Both the position numbers and the translations under genes were made by a program. From Thermoplasmatota archaeon (GTDB lineage Archaea > Thermoplasmatota > E2 > DHVEG-1 > B18-G2), in NCBI GenBank assembly GCA_029259115.1, contig JAPDJO010000028.1, forward strand, positions 1-64,000: a stretch of DNA of 64,000 nt, given 5' to 3'. Below, one piece after another: positions 3,163 through 63,040 of this stretch. The first letter of the stretch is position 1, and each line of letters starts with the position of its first letter. Under the pieces are notes generated by a model that worked only from the letters and a program-made list of their open reading frames with translations, was not told the origin of the DNA and did not search any database.

Positions 3163-3172
3163 GTGCATCCCA
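3163..3172 (-). promoter_or_regulatory. Leader motif TGGGATGCAC, copy 1 (upstream of secretion ATPase)
   Basis: gtgcatccca on the + strand. The same 10-mer occurs at 18391 and 63031. TATA-like TATAAATA lies at about 3214-3221 on the minus strand. Confidence 0.55.
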
Positions 3173-3295
3173 TCCACCCTATCCTAAGGACTAGATACGA
3201 ATACGCTTTACAATATTTATAGATTTTTTTATCTGTAGGTCTTAAAAATTAATCTCGTCAAGAATCTTTTTAACTTCGAGTAACTTATCTCTTTT

Positions 3296-3369
3296 GGGTC
3301 CGTAAGGTAGTCCGGATATCCTACCGGCCTTCGGAGCCGGTAACCGGGGTTCGAATCCCCGCGGACCCG
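3296..3369 (+). tRNA. tRNA-Arg(TCG)
   Basis: Acceptor stem GGGTCCG/CGGACCC, anticodon arm CCGGC-CT TCG GA-GCCGG, T loop GTTCGAATC. Confidence 0.95.
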
Positions 3370-3406
3370 CATAGTTTTTTAAAATCATTTTCCTTACTGG
3401 TTCAAC

Positions 3407-3919
3407 ATGGTTGAAAGTAAAAGACCAAGTATACATCCATCCTGCTATATAGATGAAAGTGCAGTAATAATCGGAAATGTAGTGATGGAAAAAGACTGCA
3501 GCATATGGCCTAACGCCGTAATAAGAGGAGATAGAAACAGGATCATAATAAGAGAAGGAACGAACATTCAAGATGGTTGCATTATACATACAGATGACAA
3601 GCATGATGTTGAGATAGGAAAAAATGTATCAATAGGTCATGGTGCCATAGTTCACGGAGCCAAGATAGGAGATAACTGTTTAATAGGAATGAATGCAACC
3701 ATACTTAATGGAGCAAAGATTGGTAGAGGATGCTTAATTGGAGCTAATGCTCTTATTCTGGAGGATACTGAAATTCCTGATCATAGCTTAGTTGTTGGTA
3801 TTCCTGGAAAGATATTGAGACAGGACAAAGAAATGGAGAAGAAAATTATAGAAAACGCAGAGATATACAAAGAACTGGCAAAAGAACACAAAGAAGGAAA
3901 GTACTCTAGACTTCCCTGA
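3407..3919 (+). CDS. Gamma-class carbonic anhydrase family (hexapeptide-repeat) protein
   Basis: IRGD...NIQDGCIIH...IGHGAIVHG metal-binding His motifs and hexapeptide repeats. Confidence 0.92.
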   Translation: MVESKRPSIHPSCYIDESAVIIGNVVMEKDCSIWPNAVIRGDRNRIIIREGTNIQDGCIIHTDDKHDVEIGKNVSIGHGAIVHGAKIGDNCLIGMNATILNGAKIGRGCLIGANALILEDTEIPDHSLVVGIPGKILRQDKEMEKKIIENAEIYKELAKEHKEGKYSRLP

Positions 3920-4943
3920 TCTCTATCTTGAACAACTTTCCTACTCTATTCATAATTATCTTTACCGGAAGGAATTTTTCAATCAGCCAGGCGTTCGTCC
4001 TAGTGTGCCCTGTTATCTCTCTGGTAAAGAAAAAGGACCTCTCTCCATATTTTGCAGAGATATAAGCTAGATATACCAATATTTGATCGGCCATACGAAT
4101 ATCGAGAGAAGATCTCGATTCTATCTCCTTTAGGACATTTTCAGCTACAACTCTTCCGAGCTTTTCAGAAGGTAATCCTTTTTCACCTATTTCTGATGCA
4201 CCTACTTTACTCTCTTTACTATCTGACCATAATGTTATAGAAACGCCCTCGGATGGGGATTCATCATCCCTATCTACTTCTATCTGGCAGGATATTGATC
4301 TCTCCAATGCTGTCTTTATTACTGAATGCTTAATTCTCTTCGGTATATCATCTTTCAACTTAGATACGGCTATCACTCCTCCAATATCACTATACTCTTG
4401 CTCCTCTAGAAATAAAGGTTTTGGATTCTGCACTGGAAAAATCTCTATCTCGACCTCTCCTCCACCTTTTGGATAGAATCCTCTTCTGATCAGTTTTGTT
4501 CTCGCATCTATACCAATAGCTTTTACTATATGAAGAAAGACATCATTAAAGTAGTTCCAAGTCGGAGACCATTTTACATCTGTTCCTCCCCTCAAAGTTA
4601 ATGATATAGGTTTAGATATTTCGAAAGATAGAGGGATGATGGTCTGCAAAACCAGAGTTATACTTCCTGCAGTTCCTATATCAAACCTGTATCCACCTTC
4701 TTTAATAGCTTTAGGATGAAACTCCAACCTTGGAGAGCCTATCTCAAGACCCTTCACGCTAGCATTGGATATCTCTTTCAGTACCCTCACAGCGGTAAGA
4801 TGCTGGGCTCTCAGTCCTGGATTTGGTCTATTAGCCCTGATATTTTTGATTAATACTGGCTTACCAGTAAGAACAGATAACGAAATAGAGCTTCTCAGAA
4901 TCTGTCCTCCGCCCTCTCCGTAGCTTCCATCTATCTCTATCAT
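3906..4943 (-). CDS. rtcA: RNA 3'-terminal phosphate cyclase
   Basis: MIEIDGSYGEGGGQILRS, RPNPGLRAQH, GFYPKGGG and ITGHTRTN. ATG at 4943 overlaps the upstream CinA gene's stop (ATGA). Confidence 0.95.
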   Translation of the reverse strand: MIEIDGSYGEGGGQILRSSISLSVLTGKPVLIKNIRANRPNPGLRAQHLTAVRVLKEISNASVKGLEIGSPRLEFHPKAIKEGGYRFDIGTAGSITLVLQTIIPLSFEISKPISLTLRGGTDVKWSPTWNYFNDVFLHIVKAIGIDARTKLIRRGFYPKGGGEVEIEIFPVQNPKPLFLEEQEYSDIGGVIAVSKLKDDIPKRIKHSVIKTALERSISCQIEVDRDDESPSEGVSITLWSDSKESKVGASEIGEKGLPSEKLGRVVAENVLKEIESRSSLDIRMADQILVYLAYISAKYGERSFFFTREITGHTRTNAWLIEKFLPVKIIMNRVGKLFKIEIREV

Positions 4944-5425
4944 GACTCCAGAACCTCTAGAAGCATAGATAAAGCTGCATTGCATGCGCTCTCCTTGTTC
5001 TCTATTCTATTTCCCTTGAATAAAAATTTCCTAACAATCGTTCTCTCTTTTGTAGATACTCCCACATATACTAAGCCAACAGGTTTGTCTTTCGTTCCCC
5101 CGGTTGGTCCAGCTATGCCTGTCGTAGATATACCGATATCAACCTTTGATCTTTTCCTTATACCCTCAGCCATCTCCTTTGCTACAGGTTCACTGACTGC
5201 TCCATATTTGTCCAAGGTTTCCTTCGATACTCCCAGAAGTTCCATCTTTGCTCTGTTGCTATAAGATATCACTCCTCTGTCATAATATTCTGAACTGCCA
5301 GAGATATTTGTCATCAGATTTCCAAGCATACCACCAGTACATGATTCTGCAGTAGCTACCTTCAATCTCTTTTCTTTGAGCAGATCTGAAACTCTCCTGA
5401 GCAGATCTTTATCTATTCCTGCCAT
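4940..5425 (-). CDS. CinA C-terminal / PncC-like nicotinamide mononucleotide deamidase family protein
   Basis: ATAESCTGG, YSNRAK, GAVSEPVA..MAEG and STTGIAGPTGG motifs. Confidence 0.92.
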   Translation of the reverse strand: MAGIDKDLLRRVSDLLKEKRLKVATAESCTGGMLGNLMTNISGSSEYYDRGVISYSNRAKMELLGVSKETLDKYGAVSEPVAKEMAEGIRKRSKVDIGISTTGIAGPTGGTKDKPVGLVYVGVSTKERTIVRKFLFKGNRIENKESACNAALSMLLEVLES

Positions 5426-5473
5426 CAAGCAAAATAAACCTTTAAGAATAGAAAAATGTTAACCTCCTTTTGC

Positions 5474-5546
5474 AGCCCCGTGGTGTAGTGGTCAATCATG
5501 CCGGCCTTTGGAGCCGGCGACGGCGGTTCGAATCCGCCCGGGGCTA
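5474..5546 (+). tRNA. tRNA-Gln(TTG)
   Basis: AGCCCCG/CGGGGCT acceptor stem, CCGGC-CT TTG GA-GCCGG anticodon arm, GTTCGAATC. Confidence 0.95.
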
Positions 5547-5602
5547 TAGTTTTGAAACAATTAATTTAAAAATAACTAATCTATACCTGGCTAAACTTGG
5601 AT

Positions 5603-5677
5603 GCTCCCGTGGTGTAGTCCGGCCAATCATTCCGGCCTTTCGAGCCGGCGACCCGGGTTCAAATCCCGGCGGGAGCA
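5603..5677 (+). tRNA. tRNA-Glu(TTC)
   Basis: GCTCCCG/CGGGAGC acceptor stem, CCGGC-CT TTC GA-GCCGG anticodon arm, GTTCAAATC. Confidence 0.95.
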
Positions 5678-5752
5678 TCTTTTAATTTTGACTTTCATTA
5701 CTGAAAATTAATAAAATTAAAAGTGATAGAAAAATAGAGAAGAAAGCTTTAT

Positions 5753-8700
5753 TTATTCGCTCTTTTCTAGATAGAAATTCTTCTTTATGACGTCTCTGAA
5801 AAGCCTATACTTAATTTTCACACCCGTTTCGGTATAGATCTTGTAACCCTTTGAAGTAGCATCTACTATTATAGTGTAATTTCCTGGGGGTAAAGGTAGC
5901 CTGTATTTGCCAGAGAATCTTGATTTTGTAGTGTAAATTTTCCCATCATCTCTTATTGCCGTTATGTTTGCTCCTCTGATTCCTCTTCCGAATAGACCTT
6001 TGGTTTTGACTTTACCTTTTAGAGTTATCGTTTCATTTAGGTAAAAGTTCATCCTTTTCTCATCACCTTTGGATAATTCTATATATCTAGTTTCGTAGTC
6101 GTATCCTCTAGCTGTTGCCTCTATCTTGTAATACCCTGGCTCAAGTATCAGCTTGTAATCCCCTTTCCTAAACAGAAATCTTCCTGCTCTGTCACTATCT
6201 ACTTTTTTCCATTCTCCGTCAGCGTATTTGTAAGCAACAACCTTTGCCCATGGTATTTTCTTATTTATGATCTTATTATAATCATAGATCGTTCCGTATA
6301 GCACAGCATACTCTGTCTTTCCCTTCGTCCTGTTCAGATTTATTACTGTAACATTCATGTGGTCCTCGGCTAGAAGATTGCCAAAGGCGTCGTAAGCTTC
6401 GACCGATATCATCTTTCTGCCTATCGCTCTCTCATTCCATGTATAAGTGAAGGGCGGATTATAATCGACAGTCTTTGGTTCTTCACTTACAAGGAACACA
6501 ACATGGTCAACATCTCCGGTGACATTTGCTTCAATAGTTATAGGACCTATTATCCATGTTCTGAAGAGAGTTGGAAATACCTTTTTATCGTGGAAATAGA
6601 GATAATAGGGCTCAGGTCTTGTTATGTTTATAGTAATCTCGTTTGCTAGTCTAAAGTGTGCAGTTATTTCTTTACCCTCATCCATTGTTATTTGGATTGT
6701 ACTTGAAGAACCGCTTGCATCTCCAGACCAGTGATCGAAGATATAGCCATCGTAAGCGTGGGCAGTTATCGTAACAGTTGTACCTTCTTCATAATCAATT
6801 TCAGCATCTTCAAAGTAGTAATCTCTAGGTGGATCGACGTAGAGATATCCAGCTCCATCTGGATCGATGCCCAATGTCAAGGTGTAATATGTTGATATCT
6901 CTTCTATGTATAAGTCGAAACTTGCTAGTAACAGATTTGAAGGTTTCCATGTTATATTTACGGTAACGTCACCATAGAGATTTGCAGCTCTCACATATAT
7001 GACATCTCCAGCATTAACCTCTCCATCCATGTCTATATATGTTGAATCTGTGTCATTGTAGCAATAAATCTCTATATCATCCCAGGATATACCTGAAGGT
7101 GATACAGAAGTTACTGTTATGGTATCATCATTATCGTCAACAGAGAATGATATCTCTGGTTGAACTTCAAAGACTGCTGTTATGGTTTTGTTTGAGTTCA
7201 TTACTACAGTAACTGGATTCTCGCTTCCTGATACATCTCCAGACCAGTGGTCGAAAATATAGCCAGAGTTTGGTATTGCAGTTAGTGTTACAGTTGTACC
7301 CTCTGGATATTGATCCAGGTCTGGTGTCTTCTCTATGCTTCCTGCTCCTTCTGGTGAGACTGAAAGGCTCAAGGTATAATAGTTGGAAGGCTCAGACATT
7401 GTTGTGAAGTACCATACATCAGATTGGTTTGTAAATTCTCCATCGCTAACGATAACATACCAAGAATATGTTGTATTGTAATCAAGACCATACCAAACGG
7501 TAGATACTGTCTCTCCACTACTCACACCCGTAACTGTATCTATCAGACTGTCATCTGATGCATCTATGAAATAAACATCTAGATCGTCATTATCTGGATC
7601 ATACACTTCTACACTGAGTATCGGATTCACAGATACGCCTGTGGAGCCATTTTCTGGCGAGGATAAAACAGGCTTTGAGGGCGGATGATTTAGTGGAGCG
7701 AAAACCGCAATCACAGTCTTATCTGAGTTCATTACTACAGTAACTGGATTTTCATCTCCAGATATGTCTCCAGACCAGTGATCGAAGATATAGCCAGAGT
7801 TTGGTATTGCAGTGAGTGTTATAGTTGTATTTTCTGGATATTGATCCAGGTCTGGTGTCTTCTCTATGCTTCCTGCTCCTTCTGGTTGAATAATGGTAGT
7901 AAGCGTAAATTCTTCGGGATTTTCTTCCACGAATTCTGCTGTCACAACAGTATCAGCATCCATGACTAATCTCAGTGGATTCGAATTGCTCAAGTAGGAC
8001 TGTCCTTGCATATTTTCAGGATATTTGACAACAACCCAGTGATCAAATCTGTAGCCATCATCAGGAACTGCCGTGAGATTTACAACCGTTCCTTCCTGAT
8101 ATCTCTCCTCTTTAGGATCTATAATTATGTGACCCGAACCCTCTGGTTGAATATGGGTGGTTAATGTATAATATTTAATGAAGTTCACATATACCAAAGC
8201 ATAATCCATCCTCCAGTCTATATGGTGGAATCCAGCTAAAGAAGAATTCAAATACAAAGTTTCCACATCTTTACTATCTTCGTCTTTTACTGGTGGTTCT
8301 GGAGGTGGAGGTGTAAATTCTACAAGGTAAGAAGAAAATCTGTTTATTGATATACCTTCATCTAAAACTATTGCATCGAAATATATAGTTGCTCCCGATA
8401 ATGGTAGATCGAACCATACTATTCTATTCTGATACTCGTTGTAGGATGCATTGTAGTTGGAACTTCCATTTACATACCTCATGTTCTTCGGAAGCTCGTC
8501 TATGGCATAAAGAACTACCTTACTATCCTGGGAAGTGGAAAAAATCATCGGTTTGACGAAACATTTGAATCTAACAGTTACAATACTACTCGGATTTGGA
8601 TCATCTACGACGATCTCTGTCGATTTTTCCCAAGAGTGGTTTTTATCGTTCCACACGTTTTTGCTTACCTGGAGACTATCTGACATTTGTCTATAATGTG

Positions 8701-9712: not shown

Positions 9713-9846
9713 CTATTTCGGCCTCCTTTCAATTAAAAAATTGATTTAACAATATAAATATTTTATTATACAAGAATAAACGATAATCTTGTAAACCAGT
9801 CAGTGTAGAGTAAAATTTTTAAATATTCCCTTTTAGTATATGATAT

Positions 9847-13361: not shown

Positions 13362-13895
13362 TTATAATTTTTCTTCGTCACTCCTCTTGATTCCCATCCT
13401 CCTCGCTAAAAATTCTCTTATCTCCTCTGGTCTTGTTGAATCTATACCAAAGTACTCAGGAAAGTATTTCGATGTGGTAAGTAGCTCTGTTGTACCCAAT
13501 CTCTTTGAGTTAACCAGTTTCTTTTCAATTAGGAAATCAACATGATCATAAACCTTTGGACCAATCATCTTTCTCAGATCAGCTTGCCTTATTGGCTGAT
13601 GATAAGCTATTAGAGCTAGAGTCTTGAGAATATCAAAAGGTATCTCCGGTTTAGCTACCTCTCTGGCTTTTTCAGCATATTCCTGCTTTAACTGCATACT
13701 ATACTTGTTTCCAGCTTTAACTATTTCCATGGGACTTTCCTCAGATTTGTAGATAGTAATCAGATTTTCTATAGCCTTTTTTATACGCCCAGCACTCAGA
13801 TTTGTTATTTCCTTCATTTCTTCTATAGATAAAGCCTCACTTGAAGAGAACAGTAGAGACTCTATTATCTTCTCATCCTCACCCTTTTTGAGCAT
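13362..13895 (-). CDS. scpB: SMC-Scp complex subunit ScpB
   Basis: IIESLLF, LKTLALIAYHQPI, TSKYFPEYFG; operon with scpA and smc. Confidence 0.92.
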   Translation of the reverse strand: MLKKGEDEKIIESLLFSSSEALSIEEMKEITNLSAGRIKKAIENLITIYKSEESPMEIVKAGNKYSMQLKQEYAEKAREVAKPEIPFDILKTLALIAYHQPIRQADLRKMIGPKVYDHVDFLIEKKLVNSKRLGTTELLTTSKYFPEYFGIDSTRPEEIREFLARRMGIKRSDEEKL

Positions 13896-13903
13896 GTTAA
13901 CAC

Positions 13904-14767
13904 CTATGTTAACCTCTTGACATATATCTTTCCAAATGGAAACCTTCTTTGATAGAGCCTTATTTTCCTATCATGAGCGAGATGAAGTAAAGCTATGAGT
14001 GTATTTATTCTTTCATTTTTATCATTAAAATTACAGAGTTCTGTTATCGGTATAGCTTTCCCATTGAACTTTTTTATCTTATCCCAGATCCTTTCTATCT
14101 CCTTCTCTATCGCTTCTTCATGAACAACGCCTTTCATCCTTTTCTTTGCCTCATTCAGTATCCTCTCTTTCTCTGTCTGCCTTATCTTCTCTATAAGCTT
14201 CCTTTCCTCAGCTTCTCTCCTTGCTTTCTCAAAAGCTTCAATAAGCTCTATCAGAGTAACTCTTCTCTGAGCCTTTCTTCTAATAGGTTCTATCAATGGG
14301 GTAAAACTCTTATCAGATATCATTCTGGTGTAGGAATAATCCTGTTCATCGTAGAGCCAATCATCTATAGCTAAATCATCCCATCCGATCTCCTCTTCTC
14401 TGTATCTCAATCTCTCAGCATTCTCAGCCGCATCCTTGCTTTGAAGATTCAGAACCTTCCAAGCCATGTAGATCAATCTTCCAGCTATTACCAGATCTAT
14501 CTTTTCCTTCTTTGCTCTTTGAAGGTACAAGGAAGAGAACTTAGCAAGATCTATTGCCCATGGATTTAGATGTTTCTGGAGAACTAACTCAAATGCTATC
14601 GCTATGGATTTATCGAAGGGATCATCTATACCAAGATGCTCTCCGGTTTGCGCCTTCTGGAGCATATCTATGTACTTATCTATCCTGGATATCTCCTCCT
14701 CATACTCTGCTATAGCTTTGTGGAAGAGTAGGTGTTGTAGTATATCGTGATCAATATCTCTCTTCAA
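13904..14767 (-). CDS. scpA: Kleisin ScpA
   Basis: LNPWAIDL, RRVTLIELIEAF, C-terminal LIALLHLA...QRRFPFGKIYV; lies between smc and scpB. Confidence 0.88.
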   Translation of the reverse strand: MKRDIDHDILQHLLFHKAIAEYEEEISRIDKYIDMLQKAQTGEHLGIDDPFDKSIAIAFELVLQKHLNPWAIDLAKFSSLYLQRAKKEKIDLVIAGRLIYMAWKVLNLQSKDAAENAERLRYREEEIGWDDLAIDDWLYDEQDYSYTRMISDKSFTPLIEPIRRKAQRRVTLIELIEAFEKARREAEERKLIEKIRQTEKERILNEAKKRMKGVVHEEAIEKEIERIWDKIKKFNGKAIPITELCNFNDKNERINTLIALLHLAHDRKIRLYQRRFPFGKIYVKRLT

Positions 14768-17700
14768 GCTCCTTTACCCCCTGTCAGTATCTCTCCTTTT
14801 GGACCTATCGATGAAAGATCTACGGTTCCAACAATCTCGGATATACCATCTTCCCTCAAAGTTACTCCATATATGTGATCTGCTTCTTTGAGGGTTACCT
14901 TTCTTAATGAGATCAATATAAACTGAGCATAAGACGAGTTTTCCTTTATCATTCTTGAAACTGCTTCAGCATTGATATTATCCAGAAACATATCAACCTC
15001 ATCAAGAACATAGAACGGGCTAGGATCATATCTTTGGATTGCAAATATCAGGGCAAGAGAAGCCATACTCTTCTCTCCACCTGAAAGGGAAGACAGATTC
15101 AGGGTTTTCTTCCCTCTAGGTCTAACCTTTATATTTAAACCACCAGCAAATGGATCTTCAGGATTCTCTAATTCTAAAGATGCTTCTCCACCCTCAGATA
15201 GCCTTGCATAAATCTCTTTGAAATTCTGGTTTATCTCATTGAAAACCTCATAGAATCTGTCTTTCTTCTTCTTTGCTATCTCCTTCGCAACCTTGTTCAG
15301 GTTTCTCTTCTGTTCCCTCAGTTTCTTGATGTCTTCCTCTAGTTTCTTCTTTCTCTCCTCCTGATGTTCATACTCCTCTAACGCTCTCATATTCACGGGC
15401 TCAAGCTGGCGCATGTTCTCTTCGGTTAATCTTAATGTCTCCATCAGAGAATCTATGGATGGTAGATCTTCTCTAGAAATAGAATCCAGAGAATCTACAT
15501 ATCTAGAGATTTCTTCTTCAGCTTCTTTCAATGTATCTTCCAACGTAGACAACCTGTACTTTGCTCTCGATATCAGATCAACATAGGATTCTATCCTCGT
15601 TGAGATTTTATCGATCTCTGTCTCTATCTTGACCATCTCTCTGTATATCCTTTCCTTCTCTTCGGATAGATCTTTCAACTTAGTAGTTGCTGTTGTTTCT
15701 ATCGAGATCAAGGTTTCTAATTCCTCTCTGCTCTCATCCTTCTTTAATTTGAGATTCTCTATCTCTCTCTCCTTTTCTTTTATCTCTTCATCTATTCTCC
15801 TTATCTCTTTCTCTAGATCTGTCTTTTTGTTTTCTAAGAGAGACTTTTTCTTCTGTAGGGTCTCGATCTTCCCATTTAGAGAAACCAGTTCTTCCTTCAA
15901 CTGGAGATATCTCGTTTCAAGTTCCTCCAATTTTTTCAGCATATCTTCTTTTTTACCTTTCAAGAGAAGTTTTCCTTTCTCTTCTTTTATCTTGTTAATC
16001 TCCTCCAACTTATCTTTTATCTTGTTAATCTCTTCATCGGCAATTCTGATCTTTTCCTCTATTTCTTCTCTCTCCTTGGCTTTCATCTCCATCTCGTTAT
16101 TCACAGCTTTAAGTTTTGCCTCGAACTCTCTTTTTCTGGCTTCAATATCGGATATATCAATTGAAGATACGCTTTCCAATTCCCTCTTCTCATTCTGTAA
16201 CTCCTCGATCTCCTTTCTTATCTCATCCAGTTTCTTTACCAGAGCATCATGACTCTCTATTGCCTTTCTCAGTTTTTCTTCGATCTCATCTAGCTTTGAC
16301 CTATCTGCTGGAGAGAATGATATGGTCTTCTCTGCAACCCCTCCTATCATTGCACCACTAGCCTCTATCAGATCACCTTGAAGAGTAACTAGCCTAACTC
16401 CACCCATCCATTTTCTGGCTGTATCAAGATCTTCAACAACTACAGTGTCTCCAAAAACATACCAAAATGCGCTTTCATATTCTTTTCTAAATGATATAAG
16501 ATCCATAGCAAATCCGTGACTCTTCTCATCTTCCACAGCAAGCAAAGCTTTTGCTCTAGGCTTACCAGATATCATCTTGTTTAATGGCAAAAAAGTAGCT
16601 CTACCGAACTTGTTTTTCCTTAGATACTCTATGGCTTTTGCAGCAACCTCGTCATTATCTACGATTATAGCTTGTAATCTCTGGCCACCAGCCACTTGTA
16701 AAGCGATCTCATACTTTGGATCAACCTTTGCAAGCTCCGCAACAGTTCCATGTATTCCCTCAAGCTCTCCTTTATCTCTTGCTTCTAAAATCTTCAAAAC
16801 AGCTGTTGTATATCCTTTTCTTAGAGATTCGTTTGCCTCGTATTCTGCTCTTAATCGAGAGTACTCCCTCTGGAGATTTCTTATAGCAAGATCTAACTCT
16901 CTGAGTTGCTGATTTATTTCAGCTTCTTCCTTCCTCTTTTCAAAAAGTCTCCTTTCTAGGCTCTCCTTTTTCCTTATGAGCTTACTTTGCTCCTTTCTAG
17001 CTTCCTCTATGCGCCAGCTTGAGTCTTTCACCTCAAATTCGTATGTCTTTTTGGTTTCTTGGAGTTCGTTCAGTCTTGTGTCTATAGCCTTTATTTTTTC
17101 GTTCAATCTTTCCTTATCAAGTTCTAGTTCATGTCTCCTCTGCATGAGGTTTTCATATTCCTCTCTGAGTTTTGCGAGCTCTCTCGATATTTCTATGGAT
17201 TTCTTATCTGACTCTTTCATATTTTCTCTTATGTCGTTGATCTCTTCAGATACATTTTCTTCCTCTTTCTGTTTATGTTCAATTTCTTCGCTCAGCCTTT
17301 TTATTTCATTATCCAACTCAGATGCCTCTCTATTTACCTCTTCTAGAGACCTTTCAGAATCAACCTTCCTCTGACTCAAAGATCTTATCATGCTTTTTAT
17401 GCTAGAAATTCTTTCCTCCATCTTTGCAATCTCTGTTCTTAGTACGCTGATCTTCTCTGCTACTCTTTTTGCCTCTTCTCCACCACTCTCAGCTATTTTC
17501 TTTTCTATCTCCTCAAGTTTTTCCTTGGATTTTTCATAAAGTCTTTTCTTTTCTTCCCTCTCCTTTTCGAGTTTCTCCTTTTCCTTCTCATAGCTTTCTA
17601 TCTGTCTCTGCAGCTCTGCTATCTGCTCTTCTATATCCAGCTTTTTCTTGTAAGCTATCTTTGCTTTTGTTTCGTAAAGTTTTTCCTGAAGCTCCTTATA

Positions 17701-18369
17701 CCTTATCGCCTCATCTCTCTCTTTCTTAAGTTGATTTAACTGCCTATTTATTTCATCCAGAATTATGTTTATCCTCTGGATGTTCTCTTCTACTTCTTTC
17801 TTTTCCTTCTCTGCCCTTTCTAGATCTCTATCAAACTCACTTATTCCCGCGATATCATCAATTATTCTTCTTCTCTCTACAGGTCCCATCTCGACTAGAG
17901 ATGTTACGTCGCCCTGCTTAACTATATTATATCCATCCCCGGATATCCTAGCCCTAGTCAGAAGATTGACAAAATCTGTTAGTGATGCTGATCTTCCATT
18001 TATGTAAAAATAGCTGTAGAAGTTGTCTGGATTATCCTTAAGAGGGGCTCTTTTAATCCTTCTAGTAAGCACAACGGTATCTGAATCTATGGGCAATTTT
18101 CTATCCTTATTATCGAATACAAGAGAAACTTCACAGTAGTTTGCGGCCTTCTTTTTATCCTTACCGCCATTAAAAATCAAATCCGTAAGTCTCTCAGCCC
18201 TTATTGATTTTGGACTTTTTGGGCCGAGAACAAACCTTATAGCATCTCCTATATTACTCTTACCTGAACCATTTGGACCTGTTATGGCTGTGAATCCAGG
18301 GAAAAAAGGTATAACAACTCTTTTTCCAAATGATTTGAAATTCTCCATCCTTATTTCCTTTAGATACAG
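14764..18369 (-). CDS. smc: Chromosome segregation protein SMC (probable CTG start)
   Basis: ENFKSF, GPNGSGKSN, hinge GRATFLPL, LSGGEKS, LDEVD. The conserved N-terminus (L/M)YLKEIRMENFKSF begins at CTG 18369 with a GGAGG SD. Confidence 0.96.
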   Translation of the reverse strand: MYLKEIRMENFKSFGKRVVIPFFPGFTAITGPNGSGKSNIGDAIRFVLGPKSPKSIRAERLTDLIFNGGKDKKKAANYCEVSLVFDNKDRKLPIDSDTVVLTRRIKRAPLKDNPDNFYSYFYINGRSASLTDFVNLLTRARISGDGYNIVKQGDVTSLVEMGPVERRRIIDDIAGISEFDRDLERAEKEKKEVEENIQRINIILDEINRQLNQLKKERDEAIRYKELQEKLYETKAKIAYKKKLDIEEQIAELQRQIESYEKEKEKLEKEREEKKRLYEKSKEKLEEIEKKIAESGGEEAKRVAEKISVLRTEIAKMEERISSIKSMIRSLSQRKVDSERSLEEVNREASELDNEIKRLSEEIEHKQKEEENVSEEINDIRENMKESDKKSIEISRELAKLREEYENLMQRRHELELDKERLNEKIKAIDTRLNELQETKKTYEFEVKDSSWRIEEARKEQSKLIRKKESLERRLFEKRKEEAEINQQLRELDLAIRNLQREYSRLRAEYEANESLRKGYTTAVLKILEARDKGELEGIHGTVAELAKVDPKYEIALQVAGGQRLQAIIVDNDEVAAKAIEYLRKNKFGRATFLPLNKMISGKPRAKALLAVEDEKSHGFAMDLISFRKEYESAFWYVFGDTVVVEDLDTARKWMGGVRLVTLQGDLIEASGAMIGGVAEKTISFSPADRSKLDEIEEKLRKAIESHDALVKKLDEIRKEIEELQNEKRELESVSSIDISDIEARKREFEAKLKAVNNEMEMKAKEREEIEEKIRIADEEINKIKDKLEEINKIKEEKGKLLLKGKKEDMLKKLEELETRYLQLKEELVSLNGKIETLQKKKSLLENKKTDLEKEIRRIDEEIKEKEREIENLKLKKDESREELETLISIETTATTKLKDLSEEKERIYREMVKIETEIDKISTRIESYVDLISRAKYRLSTLEDTLKEAEEEISRYVDSLDSISREDLPSIDSLMETLRLTEENMRQLEPVNMRALEEYEHQEERKKKLEEDIKKLREQKRNLNKVAKEIAKKKKDRFYEVFNEINQNFKEIYARLSEGGEASLELENPEDPFAGGLNIKVRPRGKKTLNLSSLSGGEKSMASLALIFAIQRYDPSPFYVLDEVDMFLDNINAEAVSRMIKENSSYAQFILISLRKVTLKEADHIYGVTLREDGISEIVGTVDLSSIGPKGEILTGGKGA

Positions 18370-18388
18370 ATGTGCTCCCTCCTATCCC

Positions 18389-18400
18389 GAGTGCATCCCA
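18389..18400 (-). promoter_or_regulatory. Leader motif TGGGATGCACTC, copy 2 (smc 5' leader)
   Basis: gagtgcatccca on the + strand, about 25 nt downstream of TTTATATA (18425-18432, minus strand) and about 20 nt upstream of the smc start. Confidence 0.6.
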
Positions 18401-18491
18401 GTAAATCTTGAAACAAAATATCTGTATATAAAATTTTGTAGATTTTCAACATAGCTATCAGAAAATGTTAAGGTTAAAAGGTAGGTGCCTC

Positions 18492-18691: not shown

Positions 18692-19525
18692 ATGACCAGA
18701 TTCACAGATATCTACCTCAGAAGGGTGTTCAAAACTATCGAGAAAAATAGGCTTGTAGAAAACAGTGATAGGATATTTGTTGCTTTAAGTGGAGGAAAAG
18801 ATAGCGCAAGCTGCCTCTACTGTGTTAAAAGATTCGCTGACGAAAGGAACATAGATTGCGAAATAAAAGGTTTTTACATCAACCTAGACGATTCTCCAGA
18901 AGTTAGAGAACCGATAAAGAGCTTAGTGGAAAAACTGGACATAGAGCTTATAGAGATCGAGCCTCCAGATATTCGTAAATACAGAGGCTCAAGACCCATA
19001 TGTAGCGTTTGTGGAATCGTAAAGAGGTATCTGATGAATAAAATTCCTAGAGAGAAGGGAGCGACAAAGATCGCAACAGGTCACAATATGGATGATTTTA
19101 TTGTTTTCTTTCTTAAGAATCTGGTAGGAAAGAACTATTCATGGATATCGAATTTCAAACCAAAAGTGGAATCTACACATCCAAAGTTACTGACCAGAAT
19201 AAGACCTCTCTTCAACGTCGGGAATAGAGAAGATGAGAGATTTTGTGAGGAGATGAAGATACCTTACACAAAAAAGCATATATGCAGATTTAAAGCCAGG
19301 GAATGCAGTTACAACAGGAAGAGAGATAATTGGTACAGCACCCTATACGAGATAGAGAAATGGAATAAGAGTTTCAGACAACAGATGATATCTGCAATAG
19401 AAGACGTATCAACACTTTTCAAGAAGGAGGAAGATTTGAAAGAGTGCTCCATCTGCGGAGAACCTAGCAATAAGGAGATATGCGCTTATTGTAGAATATT
19501 TGGAGATGCCTCGGGAGGGATTTGA
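18692..19525 (+). CDS. PP-loop tRNA thiolation-type ATPase (TtuA/NcsA, TIGR00269-like)
   Basis: ALSGGKDS PP-loop, CSVCG, ATGHNMDD, RIRPL and C-terminal CxxC...CxxC. The N-terminal Zn finger is absent. Confidence 0.87.
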   Translation: MTRFTDIYLRRVFKTIEKNRLVENSDRIFVALSGGKDSASCLYCVKRFADERNIDCEIKGFYINLDDSPEVREPIKSLVEKLDIELIEIEPPDIRKYRGSRPICSVCGIVKRYLMNKIPREKGATKIATGHNMDDFIVFFLKNLVGKNYSWISNFKPKVESTHPKLLTRIRPLFNVGNREDERFCEEMKIPYTKKHICRFKARECSYNRKRDNWYSTLYEIEKWNKSFRQQMISAIEDVSTLFKKEEDLKECSICGEPSNKEICAYCRIFGDASGGI

Positions 19526-19580
19526 ACCCTCGACTTCACGGTCTTCAGCCGTGCACTCTCCCAGGCTGAGTTACCGAGGC
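19507..19580 (-). tRNA. tRNA-Phe(GAA)
   Basis: Reverse complement reads GCCTCGG...CACGG-CT GAA GA-CCGTG...GGTTCAAATCC...CCGAGGCA. Confidence 0.95.
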
Positions 19581-19581
19581 A

Positions 19582-52922: not shown

Positions 52923-52981
52923 TGTTAATTATCTTTGTGCATTCTCATATAAAAACATTTTCGTACAAAAATTAGCAGAGA

Positions 52982-53055
52982 TGCCCGCACCGGGATTCGA
53001 ACCCGGGTAGGAGGCTCCGCAGGCCTCCAGGATATCCAAGCTACCTCATGCGGGC
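52982..53055 (-). tRNA. tRNA-Arg(GCG)
   Basis: Reverse complement reads GCCCGCA...GAGGC-CT GCG GA-GCCTC...GGTTCGAATCC...TGCGGGCA. Confidence 0.95.
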
Positions 53056-53579
53056 TATTTCATGATATCGAGCATCGCTACCCTTTCCAAAATCAGATCT
53101 ACATATTTATCTTTGTCCACGGTATCTAACTCTTCTTCGGTAAAGCCAAATCTCTTCAATTTTTCTCTATTTACATTTATCACATCCTCATTTATTTTCA
53201 TACCGAGACTTTTAACTATACTTTCAGCATTCTCTTCAGAAATTTTTCCGCTCAAGTCTTTAAAGTCTCTGGAATCCAGAAATATAAAAACAAATCTCTG
53301 GCTCTCTTCCCTTATACCTATCTTGTCTATCGCATCCTTTACTTGACGTTCCCCAGCCATATACAATAAAAGTTCCATAGATAACTTTCTCATGCTGTTC
53401 CTATTTTCTTTAAAGGCTCTGATTGCATGATGACATGCAGATATCACATGTTCTTTCCCACATACAAGATCAGCATCCACTACCTGAATCTCTATCCCTT
53501 TATCTTCTGATATTTTCCTTACTTCTTCTATGAATCTTTCAATATCCTCTATCTTTCCCTCCGCACCAACCAGTATCAT
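53055..53579 (-). CDS. cgi121: KEOPS subunit Cgi121
   Basis: QVVDADLVCGKEH, A.RAF...N....LSMELLLYMAGERQV..AI.K.G and LERVAML. Confidence 0.9.
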   Translation of the reverse strand: MILVGAEGKIEDIERFIEEVRKISEDKGIEIQVVDADLVCGKEHVISACHHAIRAFKENRNSMRKLSMELLLYMAGERQVKDAIDKIGIREESQRFVFIFLDSRDFKDLSGKISEENAESIVKSLGMKINEDVINVNREKLKRFGFTEEELDTVDKDKYVDLILERVAMLDIMK

Positions 53580-56114: not shown

Positions 56115-56150
56115 ACTAAGGGATAGAAGATTAAGCCCTAGGTGAATCTC

Positions 56151-56411: not shown

Positions 56412-56412
56412 G

Positions 56413-59700: not shown

Positions 59701-60767
59701 AAATATTCCTCTAAACTCTTTGTCCAATTTTCTCCATCTAGAGACACCCATTTCTGCAGAGATATATTTGGATGACATATAGCATCTACTTCTGCTGTAT
59801 CGTTTACAGCAAGTGTATCACAACCATGCTTTGCAGTTACATTTACTAAGTTTTCAAAAGTTCCACATTCATCAACAGTAGCGTTGAAAACTATCTCCAT
59901 TGGAAAATCGCTATATGATAGGTCATTAAAGTACCATATAAGTTGATTTCCAGATTGCTCTGATACCTCTGGATCTGCGGTTCCGTCAACATAGCTTAGT
60001 CCGGATGGTAGTGTGTCAACTACTGTAACATTATCGAATCCTGTACCTCCTGTATTCGTAACGATTATCTTGAATGTAATCTCGCTACCTATGGATGTCT
60101 CAACAGAGTTACTATACTCTCCGCAACCGACTTTTACAAGCTTTTCAACTTCGATTCCTGGCGTAGGTTGCGGAACAGTCACATTAGCGATGGCTTCGCC
60201 ATGAACATCTTTCCCACTACAGTGATACGCATCTATGGTAACCCTGTTCGTGAGATTTCCATATCCGGTAACATTGGCCTCAAAATCTATGTAGAGATGA
60301 CCGGTTTCCTCTATGAATATACAAATACTATCCGGACTATTATCAAAATAGAGATCCCAAGTTAAGTTGTTCCCATCGATAGCTGGATCTTCCGTTACAT
60401 TACCTGTGATATAAATTGGCTCACCGGACATATTTTTCACGATAGAAATATTGTCGCCATGTATTATTGTGCTCCCCTTGACATACTCCATACCATCAGG
60501 GAGTTTGTCTTTTATAAGGATTCCATATATGCTTGTTTCATTTGGTAAATTCTGTTCAGGATGATATATAGATATCCTAAACTTAACAGTGTCTCCAATA
60601 TGTGCGGTTATTTCATCTACCCATTCGCTGCCATTCCATACCTTTTTATCTACCTGCATCTTCGTTGAATCTGAATTGTGGAGATTTAATGGTTTTACTA
60701 TTGTAGTGAAGTTTGCAGCTATCAGTATTCCTACTAACAAAACTATTGTACCTACGCTTCTTCTCAT
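56793..60767 (-). CDS. Large secreted protein with DUF11-like (isopeptide/pilin-like) repeats, Ig/PKD domains and C-terminal carboxypeptidase-regulatory-like domains
   Basis: Signal peptide; about 5 repeats of V.K...W...F.I.V.N.G...V.D.LP..L.Y..G; PKD WDFGDG; shares its C-terminal module with 5753-9712. Confidence 0.85.
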
Positions 60768-60849
60768 ACCGCATTACCTCCAAACCTTTCTAACAACATT
60801 ATCTTCTAACAGTATTTTAATTTATCGGTATATATATTTTTCTGTACAA

Positions 60850-61242
60850 TCATTGATTATGTTTGCGCTCCAAAATTCTATCTATCCTTGCCTTCAACTC
60901 CTCTATTTCAAAAGGTTTTTCAATAAAATCTTCTCCAAGAAAGCTGCCTATCTCTTTTGCCTTTTGATCGGTTCTAGCTGTCAGAAAGATTATGGGTATA
61001 TCTTTCCACTCTATTCTCTCTTTAATTCTGTTATATACTTCCCAGCCACTCATTTTAGGGAGCATTATGTCCAACACAATCAAATCAGGTTTTATCTTTT
61101 CTCTTATGAGTAATCTCAAACAGTCCTCTCCACTCTCCACAGGTATAACCTCAATATCGCTGTCTAGGGCTTTTAAACCTTCTTTTATTGATGTAAGTAT
61201 ATCTGGATTATCATCAACCACCAATATTCTCTTCTTCCTCAT
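60850..61242 (-). CDS. Single-domain response regulator (CheY-like receiver)
   Basis: ILVVDD, PDLIVLDIMLP.MSG, IIFLTA and FIEKPF. Confidence 0.95.
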   Translation of the reverse strand: MRKKRILVVDDNPDILTSIKEGLKALDSDIEVIPVESGEDCLRLLIREKIKPDLIVLDIMLPKMSGWEVYNRIKERIEWKDIPIIFLTARTDQKAKEIGSFLGEDFIEKPFEIEELKARIDRILERKHNQ

Positions 61243-63013
61243 TATTATCACCTATAGGTAATGTAAAATATATACTTGTACCTTTCCCCAATCCCTCACT
61301 CTCAGCCCATATCCTACCCCCATGCTTTTCGACTATCCTTTTGCATATAGTTAGACCAAGACCTGAGCTTTCAACGTTATGCCTTGATTCATCTACCTTA
61401 TAGAACTCATCGAATATCCTATATTTTTGATCACCCTCAAGACCCATTCCATTATCCTTTACTTCTATTATTACCTCGTTACCATTTGGTTTAGCAAGGA
61501 ATTCTATTTTTCCGCCTTCCGGCGTGTACTTGATTGAATTGGAAATCAGGTTTGTAAAAACTTCCTTTAATCTGAGTCTATCAGCTTTTACAAAAATATC
61601 TTTATCTACTCTGTTTATAGATTTTATATTTTTTTTCTTTATAATGTGTTCATTGTCCCTTATGCTCTCATCAACAATGTCACTGAGTCTTACATCTTTG
61701 ATACTAAATTTCACATTTGGCATGTTAAGTTTCGCTAGATTTAAGGTATCAACGACCAAGTTCTTCATATACCTTGCATTTCTTAGAGATATATCGATCA
61801 ATCTTTTAGTGTCTTCATCATGTACTCTTTCTCTTACAAGGGGTAGAAGTGAGAGTATGGGGGTTAGTGGCGTTTTAAGATCGTGGCCAAGTTGACTGAT
61901 AAATTCATCCTTTTGCTTCAGGAGTTCCTCGATTTCCTCTGTTCTTCTTTTTACTTCCTTTTCCAGATTCTTGTTGAGTCTTTTTAGCTCCATCTCATAA
62001 CTCTTAATATCAGTAACATCTCTGATAACCATCATTTTTCCTATTTTCTCTCCCTTCCTATCCCGAAGTGTAGTTGTACTAACCTCATAGAATCGGTTTG
62101 ATTTTTTGCACGTCTTTCTACCATCTTCCTTATACAGAAAGTCAAGGATCTTACCACAATCAACAAGAATCTCAAAAGCTTTCTTTCCAATAGCTTCGTC
62201 TCTTTTTAGTGACAGTAGTTTTTCGGCAGATCTATTGAGATCTATGACCCTATTTTCCTCGTCAAAAACGATTACTGCATCTCTCATTCCCTCTATTATC
62301 TCATTTCTTGCAATTGGAATGATATGCATCAGTTTTAACCTATATATACCCAAGAATAGGAGAAATACAGATATAGAAAAAGATATTGGAGTGAAGTCGA
62401 ATGTGAACACTCTAGATAAATATATTATATTCGATATTATTGGAATGATTGCAGCAGATGCCAATAAAACAGCTTTCTTTCTATGTATTTCGGGATAAAA
62501 GAAGGACTCTTGGAGCAAGGATAGACTGCCCGCTATAAAGATGATGTAGGAATAAATCGCATGAATCCAGAACCAATAACCATAGCTGGGAGTTAGAATC
62601 TCTAGATCTCCTATCTTGGAGAATTTTATACTCTGCCATATAAGGTGATGAAATTCATTTGTGAATACAAGTAACAAAGTTATTATCGGAATCAAGAAGA
62701 ATAGGATCACAAAGAACGGTTTTAGGTTCCTTTTAAACTTTCTCGTGTATGTAAATGAGAATAAAAACCAGAAGACCGGTAAAATAACAATACCAATGTA
62801 CTCTATCTTAGCTGCAAGTATTTTCAGATTGCAATCTGGTAAGGTCATCTCAAATAAATATCCGAGAGACCATATAGAAATGGAAATCAAGATGAGAAAA
62901 AAGTATATTGTTGGTCTATCTTTTTTGCGGCGCCATATGACATAGAGTATCGATATAGTGAATAGGAAGCCCATTGATGTAGAGGCTATAGATATAACAT
63001 CTGTTGCGAGCAT
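61214..63013 (-). CDS. Sensor histidine kinase (7TM N-terminal domain, PAS, HisKA, HATPase)
   Basis: 7 TM helices with TNEFHHLIW; PAS DAVIVFD..N..AE; H box GHDLKTPLT; NLISNSIKYT; DNGMG; SSGLGLTIC. Confidence 0.95.
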   Translation of the reverse strand: MLATDVISIASTSMGFLFTISILYVIWRRKKDRPTIYFFLILISISIWSLGYLFEMTLPDCNLKILAAKIEYIGIVILPVFWFLFSFTYTRKFKRNLKPFFVILFFLIPIITLLLVFTNEFHHLIWQSIKFSKIGDLEILTPSYGYWFWIHAIYSYIIFIAGSLSLLQESFFYPEIHRKKAVLLASAAIIPIISNIIYLSRVFTFDFTPISFSISVFLLFLGIYRLKLMHIIPIARNEIIEGMRDAVIVFDEENRVIDLNRSAEKLLSLKRDEAIGKKAFEILVDCGKILDFLYKEDGRKTCKKSNRFYEVSTTTLRDRKGEKIGKMMVIRDVTDIKSYEMELKRLNKNLEKEVKRRTEEIEELLKQKDEFISQLGHDLKTPLTPILSLLPLVRERVHDEDTKRLIDISLRNARYMKNLVVDTLNLAKLNMPNVKFSIKDVRLSDIVDESIRDNEHIIKKKNIKSINRVDKDIFVKADRLRLKEVFTNLISNSIKYTPEGGKIEFLAKPNGNEVIIEVKDNGMGLEGDQKYRIFDEFYKVDESRHNVESSGLGLTICKRIVEKHGGRIWAESEGLGKGTSIYFTLPIGDNNEEEENIGG

Positions 63014-63028
63014 ACCCCTCCACGTGAA

Positions 63029-63040
63029 GAGTGCATCCCA
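63029..63040 (-). promoter_or_regulatory. Leader motif TGGGATGCACTC, copy 3 (histidine kinase 5' leader)
   Basis: gagtgcatccca on the + strand, 12-bp identical to the smc copy, between a TTTTTAAA box and the GGAGG SD. Confidence 0.6.

Follow-up and report, generated by a model that had tools for sequence, protein, structure and literature searches.

The three copies of TGGGATGCAC that precede a secretion or pilus ATPase gene, the smc operon and a histidine kinase gene in the window (the whole 64-kb stretch of DNA analyzed here) may well be target sites, in mRNA leaders, of a trans-encoded small RNA (sRNA). A gene of about 70 nt for this sRNA was predicted outside the window, at positions 3643-3711 of contig C18 of genome G000, antisense to the motif. 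An invariant unpaired loop of the sRNA, TAGAGTGCATCCCATCC, followed by CCTCCT, complements the motif exactly; since the sRNA was located by means of the motif, the complementarity of the 10-mer is itself partly circular. The loop would pair with (GGAGGGG)ATGGGATGCAC(TC) at or near the 5' end, the Shine-Dalgarno sequence or the start codon of mRNAs, and the pairing would alter their translation or stability.

An earlier note on this DNA had described three intergenic copies of the 10-mer, oriented alike and placed between a TATA-like box and a start codon, and this was confirmed at all three coordinates. The 10-mer GTGCATCCCA was found on the + strand of the window at 3163-3172, 18391-18400 and 63031-63040, that is, three times against 0.05 expected, a number reached in 0 of 100 shuffles, and a scan of the 64-kb window for one-mismatch copies returned none. 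All three copies read TGGGATGCAC on the - strand, each with a TATA-like box before it and the start of a - strand gene after it. The 12-bp identity that had been reported for two of them was also correct, the smc and kinase copies having TGGGATGCACTC in common.

The first copy (GGATGGGATGCAC, 3163..3175, - strand), in the leader of the PilB-like ATPase gene, matches the complement of the sRNA loop over 13 nt, with a 3-nt upstream extension that is in register with the sRNA sequence. A TATA-like box, CTATAAATA, was read from the sequence 39-41 nt before it (3214..3222, - strand). The downstream gene (693..3107, - strand; 804 aa as called from GTG) encodes a T2SSE/PilB3-like secretion or pilus ATPase with Pfam matches to T2SSE (5.5e-32) and PilB3_C (5.3e-08). 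The second copy (TGGGATGCACTC, 18389..18400, - strand; 12-nt match) lies approximately at the predicted 5' end of the smc transcript, 24 nt downstream of the TATA box TTTTATATA (18425..18433, - strand), and this arrangement recurs in the genomes G004 and G007. The operon (13362..18348, - strand) is composed of smc (14764-18348), scpA (13904-14767) and scpB (13362-13895), and carries the Pfam domains SMC_N, SMC_hinge, SMC_ScpA and SMC_ScpB. A Shine-Dalgarno-like sequence, GGAGGGAG, and a candidate smc start were located at 18367..18387 (- strand); the true start is probably the CTG at 18369-18367, which precedes the ATG at 18348 by 21 nt, since the in-frame conserved N-terminus (YLKE..) opens at GTG, TTG or CTG in relatives. 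The third copy (TGGGATGCACTC, 63029..63040, - strand; 12-nt match) is situated 17 nt upstream of the kinase ATG, directly before the Shine-Dalgarno sequence GGAGGGG, with a TATA-like box, TTTTTTAAA, 19-24 nt upstream (63060..63068, - strand). According to Pfam, the gene unit at 60850..63013 (- strand) encodes a HisKA_7TM-PAS histidine kinase (61214-63013) followed by a receiver-only response regulator (60850-61251).

Throughout the 1.40-Mb genome, 10 copies of the 10-mer were counted against 1.3-1.5 expected under Markov orders 1-5. This count alone is unexceptional, because 843 of the 215,040 10-mers with six G/C also have at least 10 genome copies; similarly, the 7-mer GGGATGC was not enriched in the window (5 observed vs 4.15 expected). 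Both figures would suit a functionless chance recurrence of a GC-rich 10-mer, but the position and orientation of the copies, the cross-genus conservation of the leaders and the de novo rank of an overlapping 10-mer make this explanation very improbable. The signal rests on the position, orientation and conservation of the motif rather than on its count. Excluding the sRNA copy, five of nine genome copies were promoter-proximal and gene-oriented, as were 19 of the 39 copies counted in seven same-family relatives; the intergenic share of the genome is about 7.5% by our own ORF call. The overlapping 10-mer, GATGGGATGC, was the most 5'-specific and the second most frequent in a de novo genome scan of 10-mers with at least four G/C, having 8 copies in 5' windows vs 3 in CDS (17.5-fold by density). 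The wider core of the motif is GATGGGATGC(AC), and its gene set exceeds the three genes of the window. A further word, TGGGATGC, was enriched 4.3-fold in windows from -120 to +40 and was listed together with enriched Shine-Dalgarno and TATA words. Two observations weaken the link with the sRNA: the 10-mer is common too in families that yielded no 18-mer core, and the reversed-sequence control is skewed by CG and TAG.

The core was retained in orthologous leaders, whereas the flanking sequences diverged around it. By eye, it was kept in 23 of 26 smc orthologues, and a match of at least 8 nt was present in 18 of 26, in comparison with 7.3% of background windows. Leaders of the kinase family had a match of at least 8 nt in 11 of 12 homologues, with a sliding register, and the three ATPase homologues found (G004, G005 and G006) all carried matches upstream, of 14, 10 and 9 nt, respectively. 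The stretch of the sRNA sequence that is matched shifts and lengthens from target to target, and among sites with a GGGATG core, an in-register match of at least 12 nt was observed in 15.9% of 5' sites vs 1.4% of CDS sites. The suggestion of the earlier note that the three leaders belong to a regulon was strengthened both by this retention and by the genome-wide copies, which are non-random in place and strand. The same note had linked the smc and ATPase leaders through GGATAGG; the sequence is indeed present in both, but the orthologous leaders in G002 (smc) and G004 (ATPase) have not retained it, so that the link is unsupported and its occurrence in the two leaders is probably due to chance. 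A mimic of the ribosomal protein L1 stalk in the smc leader was also considered and rejected: the 23S rRNA of six relatives lacked GGATAGG, and GGGATGC was absent from the region. The source genome assembly has no 23S of its own.

Of 118 genomes of the order, 115 had the sRNA pattern, and the covariance model of the sRNA had matches in 69 of the 151 genomes sampled across Thermoplasmatota. A BRE (CGAAA) and a TATA box were found roughly 23 nt ahead of the first base in a stem at 50 of 61 loci, compared with 1 of 60 on the other strand, and a T-run followed the last stem at 43 of 61 loci on the sRNA strand vs 2 of 60 on the other. These are the features expected of an independent gene with its own putative promoter and terminator. 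In the predicted fold, two stacked stems leave the C-rich loop single-stranded (loop unpaired probability 0.73). When 74 distinct sRNA sequences were compared in an alignment fitted to the model, 94.3% of cells were paired and 14 of 17 pairs had compensatory changes; in the same model-fitted alignment, double-change cells numbered 111 vs 26.5 in shuffles, and 0 of 500 shuffles were as high. There were 22 G-U cells as against a single A-C. The minimum free energy did not support either strand (-24.0 for the sRNA strand vs -25.2 for the opposite one). Taken from sequence comparison, these data point to a covariation-supported structure with an accessible conserved seed. A 291-nt metatranscriptome contig from an RNA library (run X20), which is strandless and could derive from DNA carry-over, covers positions 548-838 of the locus L031, including the sRNA gene. 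Searches of Rfam yielded only tRNAs over the window at the gathering score, no matches with cmscan at E<=0.1 in C18:2143-5211 of G000, and two chance-level hits with cmscan (Rfam 15, E<=1) at ten loci with sRNA or ftsZ-leader elements.

The sRNA is complementary to several mRNA 5' leaders or initiation regions, and this complementarity is kept in orthologues. Along its complement, 5' enrichment was confined to the Shine-Dalgarno-like part and ATGGGATGCACTC. Genome-wide prediction with RNAduplex gave no bulk enrichment of 5' regions over controls and only the extreme tail stood out: duplexes of -18 kcal/mol or lower were obtained for 55 of 1290 5' regions vs 34 of 863 internal windows, with a mean of 36 and a maximum of 79 for shuffled seeds.

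The best conserved and most extended candidate target would be the leader in the spacer between a CdrS-like gene and ftsZ. The upstream neighbor of ftsZ encodes a 75-aa ribbon-helix-helix (RHH) protein resembling CdrS, and the cdrS-ftsZ pair is thus present. A bipartite complement to the sRNA was found in the cdrS-linked ftsZ leader of 29 of 30 relatives, in the order GGGATGGGATGC, a covarying hairpin, ACTACCA and the Shine-Dalgarno sequence. Cofolding the sRNA with the ftsZ leader gave -73.9 kcal/mol vs -57.1 kcal/mol for both apart. In genome G148, the sRNA has the variant loop GAGCTCATCCCAT and the verified ftsZ leader has ATGGGATGAGC, a matching change; in G127, the loop is CCCCTCTAG and the ftsZ leader has AGAGGGGATGGGAT. 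This covariation in trans rests on two genomes because the seed is invariant in nearly all lineages, and in a third test the matching site, on contig C73 of G127, proved to be coding.

The earlier note had offered two readings, an RNA-level element bound by an RNA-binding protein or an sRNA, and an initiator element. The sRNA option has gained a conserved gene with an exactly complementary loop. A protein site on the mRNAs, with the sRNA as a mere competitor masking these sites or unrelated to them, would agree with the motif being single-stranded in the hairpin loop of the ftsZ leader and at 5' ends, and the U-rich linker of the sRNA may resemble an Sm/Lsm-type site. We nevertheless consider it unlikely, since the shifts in register and the concordant change seen in G148 track base pairing and not a fixed protein motif.

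Somewhat more weight, though still a minor share, is given to a DNA-level element, either a transcription-factor operator or an extended initiator or proximal promoter element, the complementarity to the sRNA then being secondary or coincidental. Archaeal repressors often bind at, or just downstream of, the TATA box. All sites have a single orientation, the A/T before GGGATGC, maybe just upstream of the start, is conserved within genera, and in 15 of the 27 sites with a TATA-like 8-mer the motif lies 20-29 nt after the box, where transcription is predicted to start. The initiator option accordingly fits some sites, but the gap between TATA and motif is not fixed, ranging from 17 to 45 nt across sites, and the ftsZ site lacks its own promoter and is located inside an operon, in an RNA hairpin loop. 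The fixed position expected of an archaeal initiator or proximal promoter element was not observed. Moreover, the match slides along the sRNA between orthologues (GGATGGGATG vs GGGATGCACTC), as a fixed protein site would not, and the sRNA loop and ftsZ leader of G148 changed together. The operator of the division regulator CdrS was rejected as well: the haloarchaeal site, as far as the text of PMC8406309 describes it, consists of a symmetric DNA motif at 110-41 nt ahead of the start of transcription, whereas the motif found here is asymmetric and downstream of TATA.

The motif could also reflect the context of translation starts, with GGGATGC representing the 5' end and AUG of small upstream ORFs (Met-His...) or of mRNAs that have a short leader or none. 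Its ATG does open, or is in frame with, a long ORF at several sites, namely those of a KaiC-like protein (C4:19626), a giant protein (C7:26825), a FlaI-like protein (C4:30998), RecJ-like proteins (C14:3357 and C22:12268) and the genes at C1:103305 and C35:2723. For the three copies in the window, however, the internal ATG opens frames of only 25, 4 and 16 codons, none of them in the reading frame of the gene; ftsZ leaders do not conserve the frame that begins at the motif ATG, the organism uses strong Shine-Dalgarno sequences, and both the conservation of GCAC(TC) after the ATG and the complement in the sRNA would be left unexplained. This origin of the motif is therefore improbable. Overall, the first interpretation of the sequence was partly supported.

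Returning to the sRNA as the candidate regulator, we infer its expression, its pairing in the cell and repression as the outcome, the latter being a guess from the AUG codons that the loop covers and from its anti-Shine-Dalgarno-like CCUCC. Besides ftsZ, the candidate targets of the genome would be smc, Topo VI-B, two RecJ/GAN-like DHH proteins and an OB-fold protein, together with three T2SSE ATPases, two KaiC-like ATPases, a 7TM kinase and a membrane HTH regulator. More tentatively, a single phylum-wide archaeal riboregulator could couple, through its invariant C-rich loop, cell division, segregation and replication (smc, Topo VI-B, the RecJ/GAN-like and OB-fold proteins), surface or motility ATPases and sensor kinases. 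Its contact with ftsZ would be of a bipartite loop-loop kind within the cdrS-ftsZ spacer, and the other genes would be reached at mRNA 5' ends and start regions. If true, this would constitute an RNA-based switch of cell cycle or lifestyle in Thermoplasmatota; such a riboregulator is undescribed in the literature sources searched.

DicF of Escherichia coli, a prophage-borne and Hfq-dependent sRNA, has an unpaired region complementary to the translation initiation region of ftsZ. Like DicF, the candidate described here is a small trans-encoded RNA complementary to the ftsZ leader and would tie riboregulation to division; unlike DicF, to which it has no sequence relation, it is encoded by a chromosomal, phylum-wide archaeal gene, its ftsZ site is bipartite around a hairpin and its set of candidate targets is broad. 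In Methanosarcina mazei, sRNA162 and sRNA154 act in trans by masking or exposing ribosome binding sites in 5' leaders. To our knowledge, sRNAs of this type occur within a single genus or family and are linked with nitrogen or carbon metabolism; the present sRNA is phylum-wide and tied to division, segregation and surface ATPase genes.

As reported in the text of PMC8406309, ftsZ1, ftsZ2, sepF and an smc homologue of Haloferax volcanii respond together to cdrS-ftsZ2 repression, under a CdrS of the ribbon-helix-helix type. The cdrS-ftsZ gene pair is a point in common with that regulon; in contrast to the CdrS site as given in that source, the motif lies at or after the predicted start, or in the cdrS-ftsZ spacer, and has an RNA complement.

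With regard to the seed, the conserved sRNAs RsaE/RoxS of Firmicutes pair through repeated C-rich UCCC motifs with the G-rich Shine-Dalgarno regions of many mRNAs. The sRNA described here also has a C-rich unpaired motif and a seed far better conserved than its stems. It belongs to another domain of life and has no homology to them, and it differs in its single invariant seed of 17-25 nt, which also covers the AUG and the following bases, and in the many sites placed at the extreme 5' end of the predicted transcript. Two points speak against the sRNA reading. The conservation of bases immediately before the predicted start may stem from a constraint at the DNA level, and at several promoters transcription is predicted to begin within the motif, which would leave a shorter stretch for pairing.

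The earlier note had listed three copies of the 10-mer GTGCATCCCA (TGGGATGCAC on the - strand) in the window, and exactly three were found, all on the + strand (3163, 18391 and 63031), against an expectation of 0.05; none of the shuffles reached three, and no one-mismatch copies were found in the window. The placement described there, between a TATA-like box and the gene in a single orientation, was true of every copy, each standing ahead of a - strand gene. The copy at 3163 precedes a T2SSE/PilB3-like ATPase (693-3107, -) with a TATA-motif gap of ~39-41 nt; that at 18391 precedes smc, followed by scpA and scpB (13362-18348, -), with a gap of ~24 nt; and that at 63031 precedes a HisKA_7TM-PAS histidine kinase and a receiver protein (60850-63013, -), with a gap of 19-24 nt. 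The smc and kinase copies have 12 nt in common, as had been reported, and the observation itself was confirmed. The additional link proposed through GGATAGG did not survive: this word is present in the smc and ATPase leaders but missing from the smc leader of one relative (G002) and the ATPase leader of another (G004), and it was taken as chance because it is not conserved there. Five tRNA genes were also seen in the window (Arg-TCG 3296-3370, Gln 5474-5546, Glu 5602-5679, Phe 19505-19581 and Arg-GCG 52982-53055), the first of them divergent from the ATPase promoter bearing the first motif copy. The start of smc is probably 21 nt 5' of the ATG at 18348 (18346-18369, -), with a Shine-Dalgarno-like GGAGGGAG 5' of it; the in-frame YLKE.. 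N-terminus is conserved, with a GTG or TTG start in many relatives and CTG in the source genome and its family.

In the source genome (G000; 1.40 Mb in 94 contigs, the window being C3:1-64000) ten copies of the 10-mer were counted, against 1.3-1.5 expected under Markov orders 1-5. Chance recurrence was one of the explanations weighed, and the count alone is unexceptional: 843 of the 215,040 10-mers with six G/C reach ten copies. In the window GGGATGC shows no enrichment. What carries the signal is the placement of the copies, rather than their number. One copy is in a small RNA gene, five are promoter-proximal and four are coding; genome-wide, therefore, five of the nine copies outside the small RNA gene stand just 3' of a TATA box in gene orientation. 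An unbiased scan of the -120..+40 windows listed TGGGATGC (4.3-fold) and GATGCACT (4.4-fold) with Shine-Dalgarno and TATA words. When all 10-mers with at least four G/C were ranked, GATGGGATGC was second in frequency in the -100..+30 windows and clearly first in 5' specificity (8 copies there vs 3 coding, 17.5-fold by density). Hence, the word of the earlier note is part of a wider motif, GATGGGATGC(AC).

A search of 31 genomes of the order found the 10-mer in every one (205 copies). A reversed-word control (22 copies) was biased, since the reversed word holds CG and TAG and overstates the enrichment, and the Markov expectation was therefore relied on instead. From seven genomes of the same family, 39 copies with enough flank were classified by reading: 19 were promoter-proximal in gene orientation, 3 fell within the small RNA gene, 6 belonged to a multi-copy inverted-repeat element located at the ends of contigs, 7 were coding and 4 were unclassified. 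Among the genes with promoter-proximal sites were orthologues of those in the window, namely smc (G004 and G007), a 7TM kinase (G002) and the ATPase (G004), together with a KaiC-like gene (G004). Orthologous smc, kinase and ATPase leaders keep the match, with a sliding register, above the background of 7.3% for matches of at least 8 nt (2.6% for at least 9 nt), computed over every 142-nt window of the retrieved loci, those of the target leaders among them. The match reached at least 8 nt in 18 of 26 smc leaders and at least 9 nt in 12; by reading, GGGATG stands ~20-25 nt after the TATA box in 23 of the 26, two being without it and one cut at the window edge. Among the 7TM kinase leaders 11 of 12 matched over at least 8 nt, some with GGATGGGATG and others with GGGATGCACTC, and the ATPase leaders of all three relatives found matched over 14, 10 and 9 nt. 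The inverted-repeat element consists of the motif and its complement (ATACCGTGCATCCC ... GGGATGCACGGTAT, spacing 12-45 nt) and was seen in L006 (G006 C15:1-1520), L214-L216 and L218 (G007 C34, C57, C81 and C101) and L194 (G002 C120). It adjoins a conserved ~40-nt stretch found at several contig ends and resembles the terminus of a mobile element or repeat present in several copies.

Several copies in relatives fall within one conserved ~70-nt element, the predicted small RNA (sRNA) gene; the pattern GGGATGC-N(5-35)-ACTACCA was found in 115 of 118 genomes of the order. Read on the motif strand, the element has an A-run at its 5' side and, after 23-25 nt, TATATATA or TTTAAGTA, then TTTTCGC. On the opposite (sRNA) strand the order is BRE (CGAAA), TATA box, ~23 nt and first stem base, with a T-run past the last stem base. 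CGAAA was present at 50 of 61 loci on the sRNA strand vs 1 of 60 on the other, and the T-run at 43 of 61 vs 2 of 60. Choosing the strand by minimum free energy was unsupported, the opposite strand being slightly more stable. The predicted fold comprises an outer stem, an inner stem and a small hairpin, with a 25-35 nt segment unpaired (loop unpaired probability 0.73), and the blocks invariant within the order are GCTGGTAG and TGCATCCCATCCCCTCCT. Of 151 genomes drawn from across the phylum, 69 gave a match to a covariance model of the sRNA, complete genomes included; across the 69 the stems vary freely and TAGAGTGCATCCCATCC is constant save in two variant lineages. The model placed the gene of the source genome at C18:3643-3711 (-), and no copy was found within the window. 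Co-occurrence of the 10-mer and the sRNA core across the phylum was uninformative, the 10-mer being present in 291 of 301 genomes, with copies partly coding (W-D-A and G-M-H).

The stems were also examined for covariation. Among 74 distinct sRNA sequences, in an alignment fitted to the covariance model, which favours the result, 94.3% of cells were paired, compensatory change was found in 14 of 17 pairs, and double-change cells numbered 111, vs 26.5 after shuffling, none of 500 shuffles reaching that count. G-U cells (22) exceeded A-C cells (1), as expected if the sRNA strand is the RNA. RNAalifold on a raw MAFFT alignment gave 6 pairs only, because the 3' stem was misaligned, and this alignment was replaced by the covariance-model one. 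Neither the sRNA nor the ftsZ-leader loci matched Rfam, and no paper in the literature searched ties these sequence words or an sRNA to ftsZ in Thermoplasmatota. Matches in an 18-mer scan of all species genomes were nearly all Thermoplasmatota records, with a few bacterial matches at about chance level. Metatranscriptome contigs span the locus without strand or ends and may be DNA; assembly breaks at the conserved core. What is new here is an unannotated, phylum-wide predicted small RNA together with conserved match sites, and such an RNA would belong with the base-pairing riboregulators, a known kind. A second, paralogous copy was seen in many genomes of family f2 (e.g., L020, L054, L056, L066 and L067); its TATA box is of the TTTAAGTA type and its anti-Shine-Dalgarno part is slightly altered (target-sense AGGATGGG.. 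or AGCAGGGG..). Separately, a weak match to HgcG, an H/ACA sRNA family, was seen in the source genome at C20:17241-17451 (L338 242-452, -), with 37.9 bits vs a gathering score of 77 (E 4.7e-08).

The motif exactly complements the middle of the unpaired invariant loop, a correspondence that is partly circular because the sRNA was found via the motif. Four lines are non-circular: position along the sRNA, in-register extension, the orthologous leaders and the ftsZ leader. Along the 69-nt sRNA complement in the source genome, 5' enrichment was confined to the Shine-Dalgarno-like part and ATGGGATGCACTC, and none was found for the stems or the second block. Complementarity extends in register beyond the 10-mer, upstream in the ATPase leader (GGATGGGATGCAC) and downstream in smc and kinase (TGGGATGCACTC), covering 14 nt in the smc leader of G004. 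At GGGATG-core sites, in-register matches of at least 10 nt made up 29% in 5' windows vs 8.5% in coding sequence, and those of at least 12 nt 15.9% vs 1.4%. Bulk duplex energies in a genome-wide RNAduplex scan were not enriched, the extreme tail alone being informative, and full-length duplexfold values did not discriminate real from shuffled leaders. Mimicry of the L1 stalk by the smc leader was rejected, the 23S of relatives lacking the words; a search of 16S, spacer and 23S for complementarity or mimicry gave no more than CCTCCTA, as expected for the 16S 3' end, and one 9-mer, which sits in the tRNA-Ala T-arm of the spacer. The threonyl-tRNA synthetase leader of the source genome (C10:~4470-4600; L337 ~170-300, -), GC-rich and structured-looking, matched neither Rfam nor tRNA; it has its own BRE/TATA and carries GGGATTGCAC and GGGGATGCACTC, an 11-nt match to the sRNA complement.

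In the source genome a 75-aa CdrS-like RHH protein (DUF5388/RHH_8; C7:51767-51994, L043 1253-1480) lies directly upstream of ftsZ, like the cdrS-ftsZ2 pair of haloarchaea. Relatives share the arrangement, with upstream ORFs ending ..EPYMKK. The spacer runs GGAGGGATGGGATGC, hairpin, CAACTACCAG, ftsZ Shine-Dalgarno sequence; both blocks occur in this order in 29 of 30 relatives, the 30th having one mismatch, and they complement the pair of invariant sRNA blocks. Covariation between genera is seen in the hairpin stem and, by reading, GGG(G)/CCC(C) closes the loop that holds the motif. The frame from the motif ATG is unconserved, and the spacer is therefore not coding. Cofolding of sRNA and leader gave -73.9 kcal/mol vs -57.1 apart, with the leader hairpin kept. 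Variant sRNA loops were found in two lineages, G148 and G127. In G148 the loop has GAGCTCATCCCAT in place of GAGTGCATCCCAT and the ftsZ leader ATGGGATGAGC in place of ATGGGATGCAC; two bases have thus changed in concert, and the gene 3' of this leader was verified to be ftsZ, with 62% identity over 340 aa. In G127 the loop has CCCCTCTAG in place of CCCCTCCTAG and the leader is AGAGGGGATGGGAT. For the change in trans these count as two supporting lineages rather than as a statistic, and nothing of the kind was seen in G231. The 16 copies of ATGGGATGAG in G148 were rejected as evidence because they are mostly coding (W-D-E), the ftsZ leader site alone counting; a G127 site on C73 is coding, not a leader site. 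An ftsZ-like gene of family f26 has GGGATGCcTCTAAC 22 nt past the TATA box, matching its own sRNA at 14 of 15 positions. In G176 (family f9, one contig) this query gave no ftsZ match at E<=1e-40, and the sRNA matched with E 1.5e-4; if this ftsZ is truly missing, the sRNA must act on other essential targets there. Two more FtsZ/tubulin-family paralogues were seen in the source genome (C26:1973-2779 and C6:55312-56106; 50-53% identity to the cdrS-linked ftsZ).

The earlier note had read the motif as an RNA-level or initiator element; support for this interpretation was partial, and a more specific form of it can now be given. A DNA-level operator or initiator would agree with the TATA-motif gap of 20-29 nt at 15 of 27 sites, but the gaps range over 17-45 nt, and neither the ftsZ spacer site nor the sliding register fits it. 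As described in PMC8406309, the Haloferax CdrS operator is symmetric and lies at -110 to -41 from starts, and it is therefore distinct from the motif. Start-codon context holds at several sites but fails in the three window leaders, and a protein-binding site on the RNA was the other alternative considered. Under the pairing reading, the sRNA loop would pair with the mRNA 5' end, the Shine-Dalgarno sequence or the AUG. Translational repression would be the likelier outcome because the loop CCUCC resembles the 16S 3' end, the direction being a guess.

Archaeal cell-cycle control is poorly understood, and its known regulators are proteins (CdrS/CdrL, aCcr1). If the reading is true, an sRNA with a frozen seed would form a directly testable post-transcriptional layer over ftsZ, smc, replication and pilus/archaellum-type ATPase genes, with the leaders as a defined set for seed and target mutation tests. 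Complete genomes of the lineage, which may derive from cultivated strains, also carry the sRNA, and the covariance model would then serve to annotate an unrecognised RNA gene in many of the mostly uncultured Thermoplasmatota genomes.

Candidate targets in the source genome were taken as genes with a match of at least 9 nt at a promoter-proximal or start site. They comprised ftsZ, smc, Topo VI-B, two DHH-CID (RecJ/GAN-like) proteins, an OB-fold protein, three T2SSE ATPases, two KaiC-like ATPases, the 7TM kinase, a membrane HTH regulator, a giant surface protein and a small ORF ahead of a PHP protein. The theme of segregation, surface appendages and signalling proposed earlier recurs in this list, with division and replication added. 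The small ORF (C6:~52930-53170, L222), which is kept in six relatives, lies between the motif (cGGGATGCAC in the source genome) and the PHP-domain gene, and the exact 10-mer was found at this site in G001, G002, G003, G004, G005 and G007.
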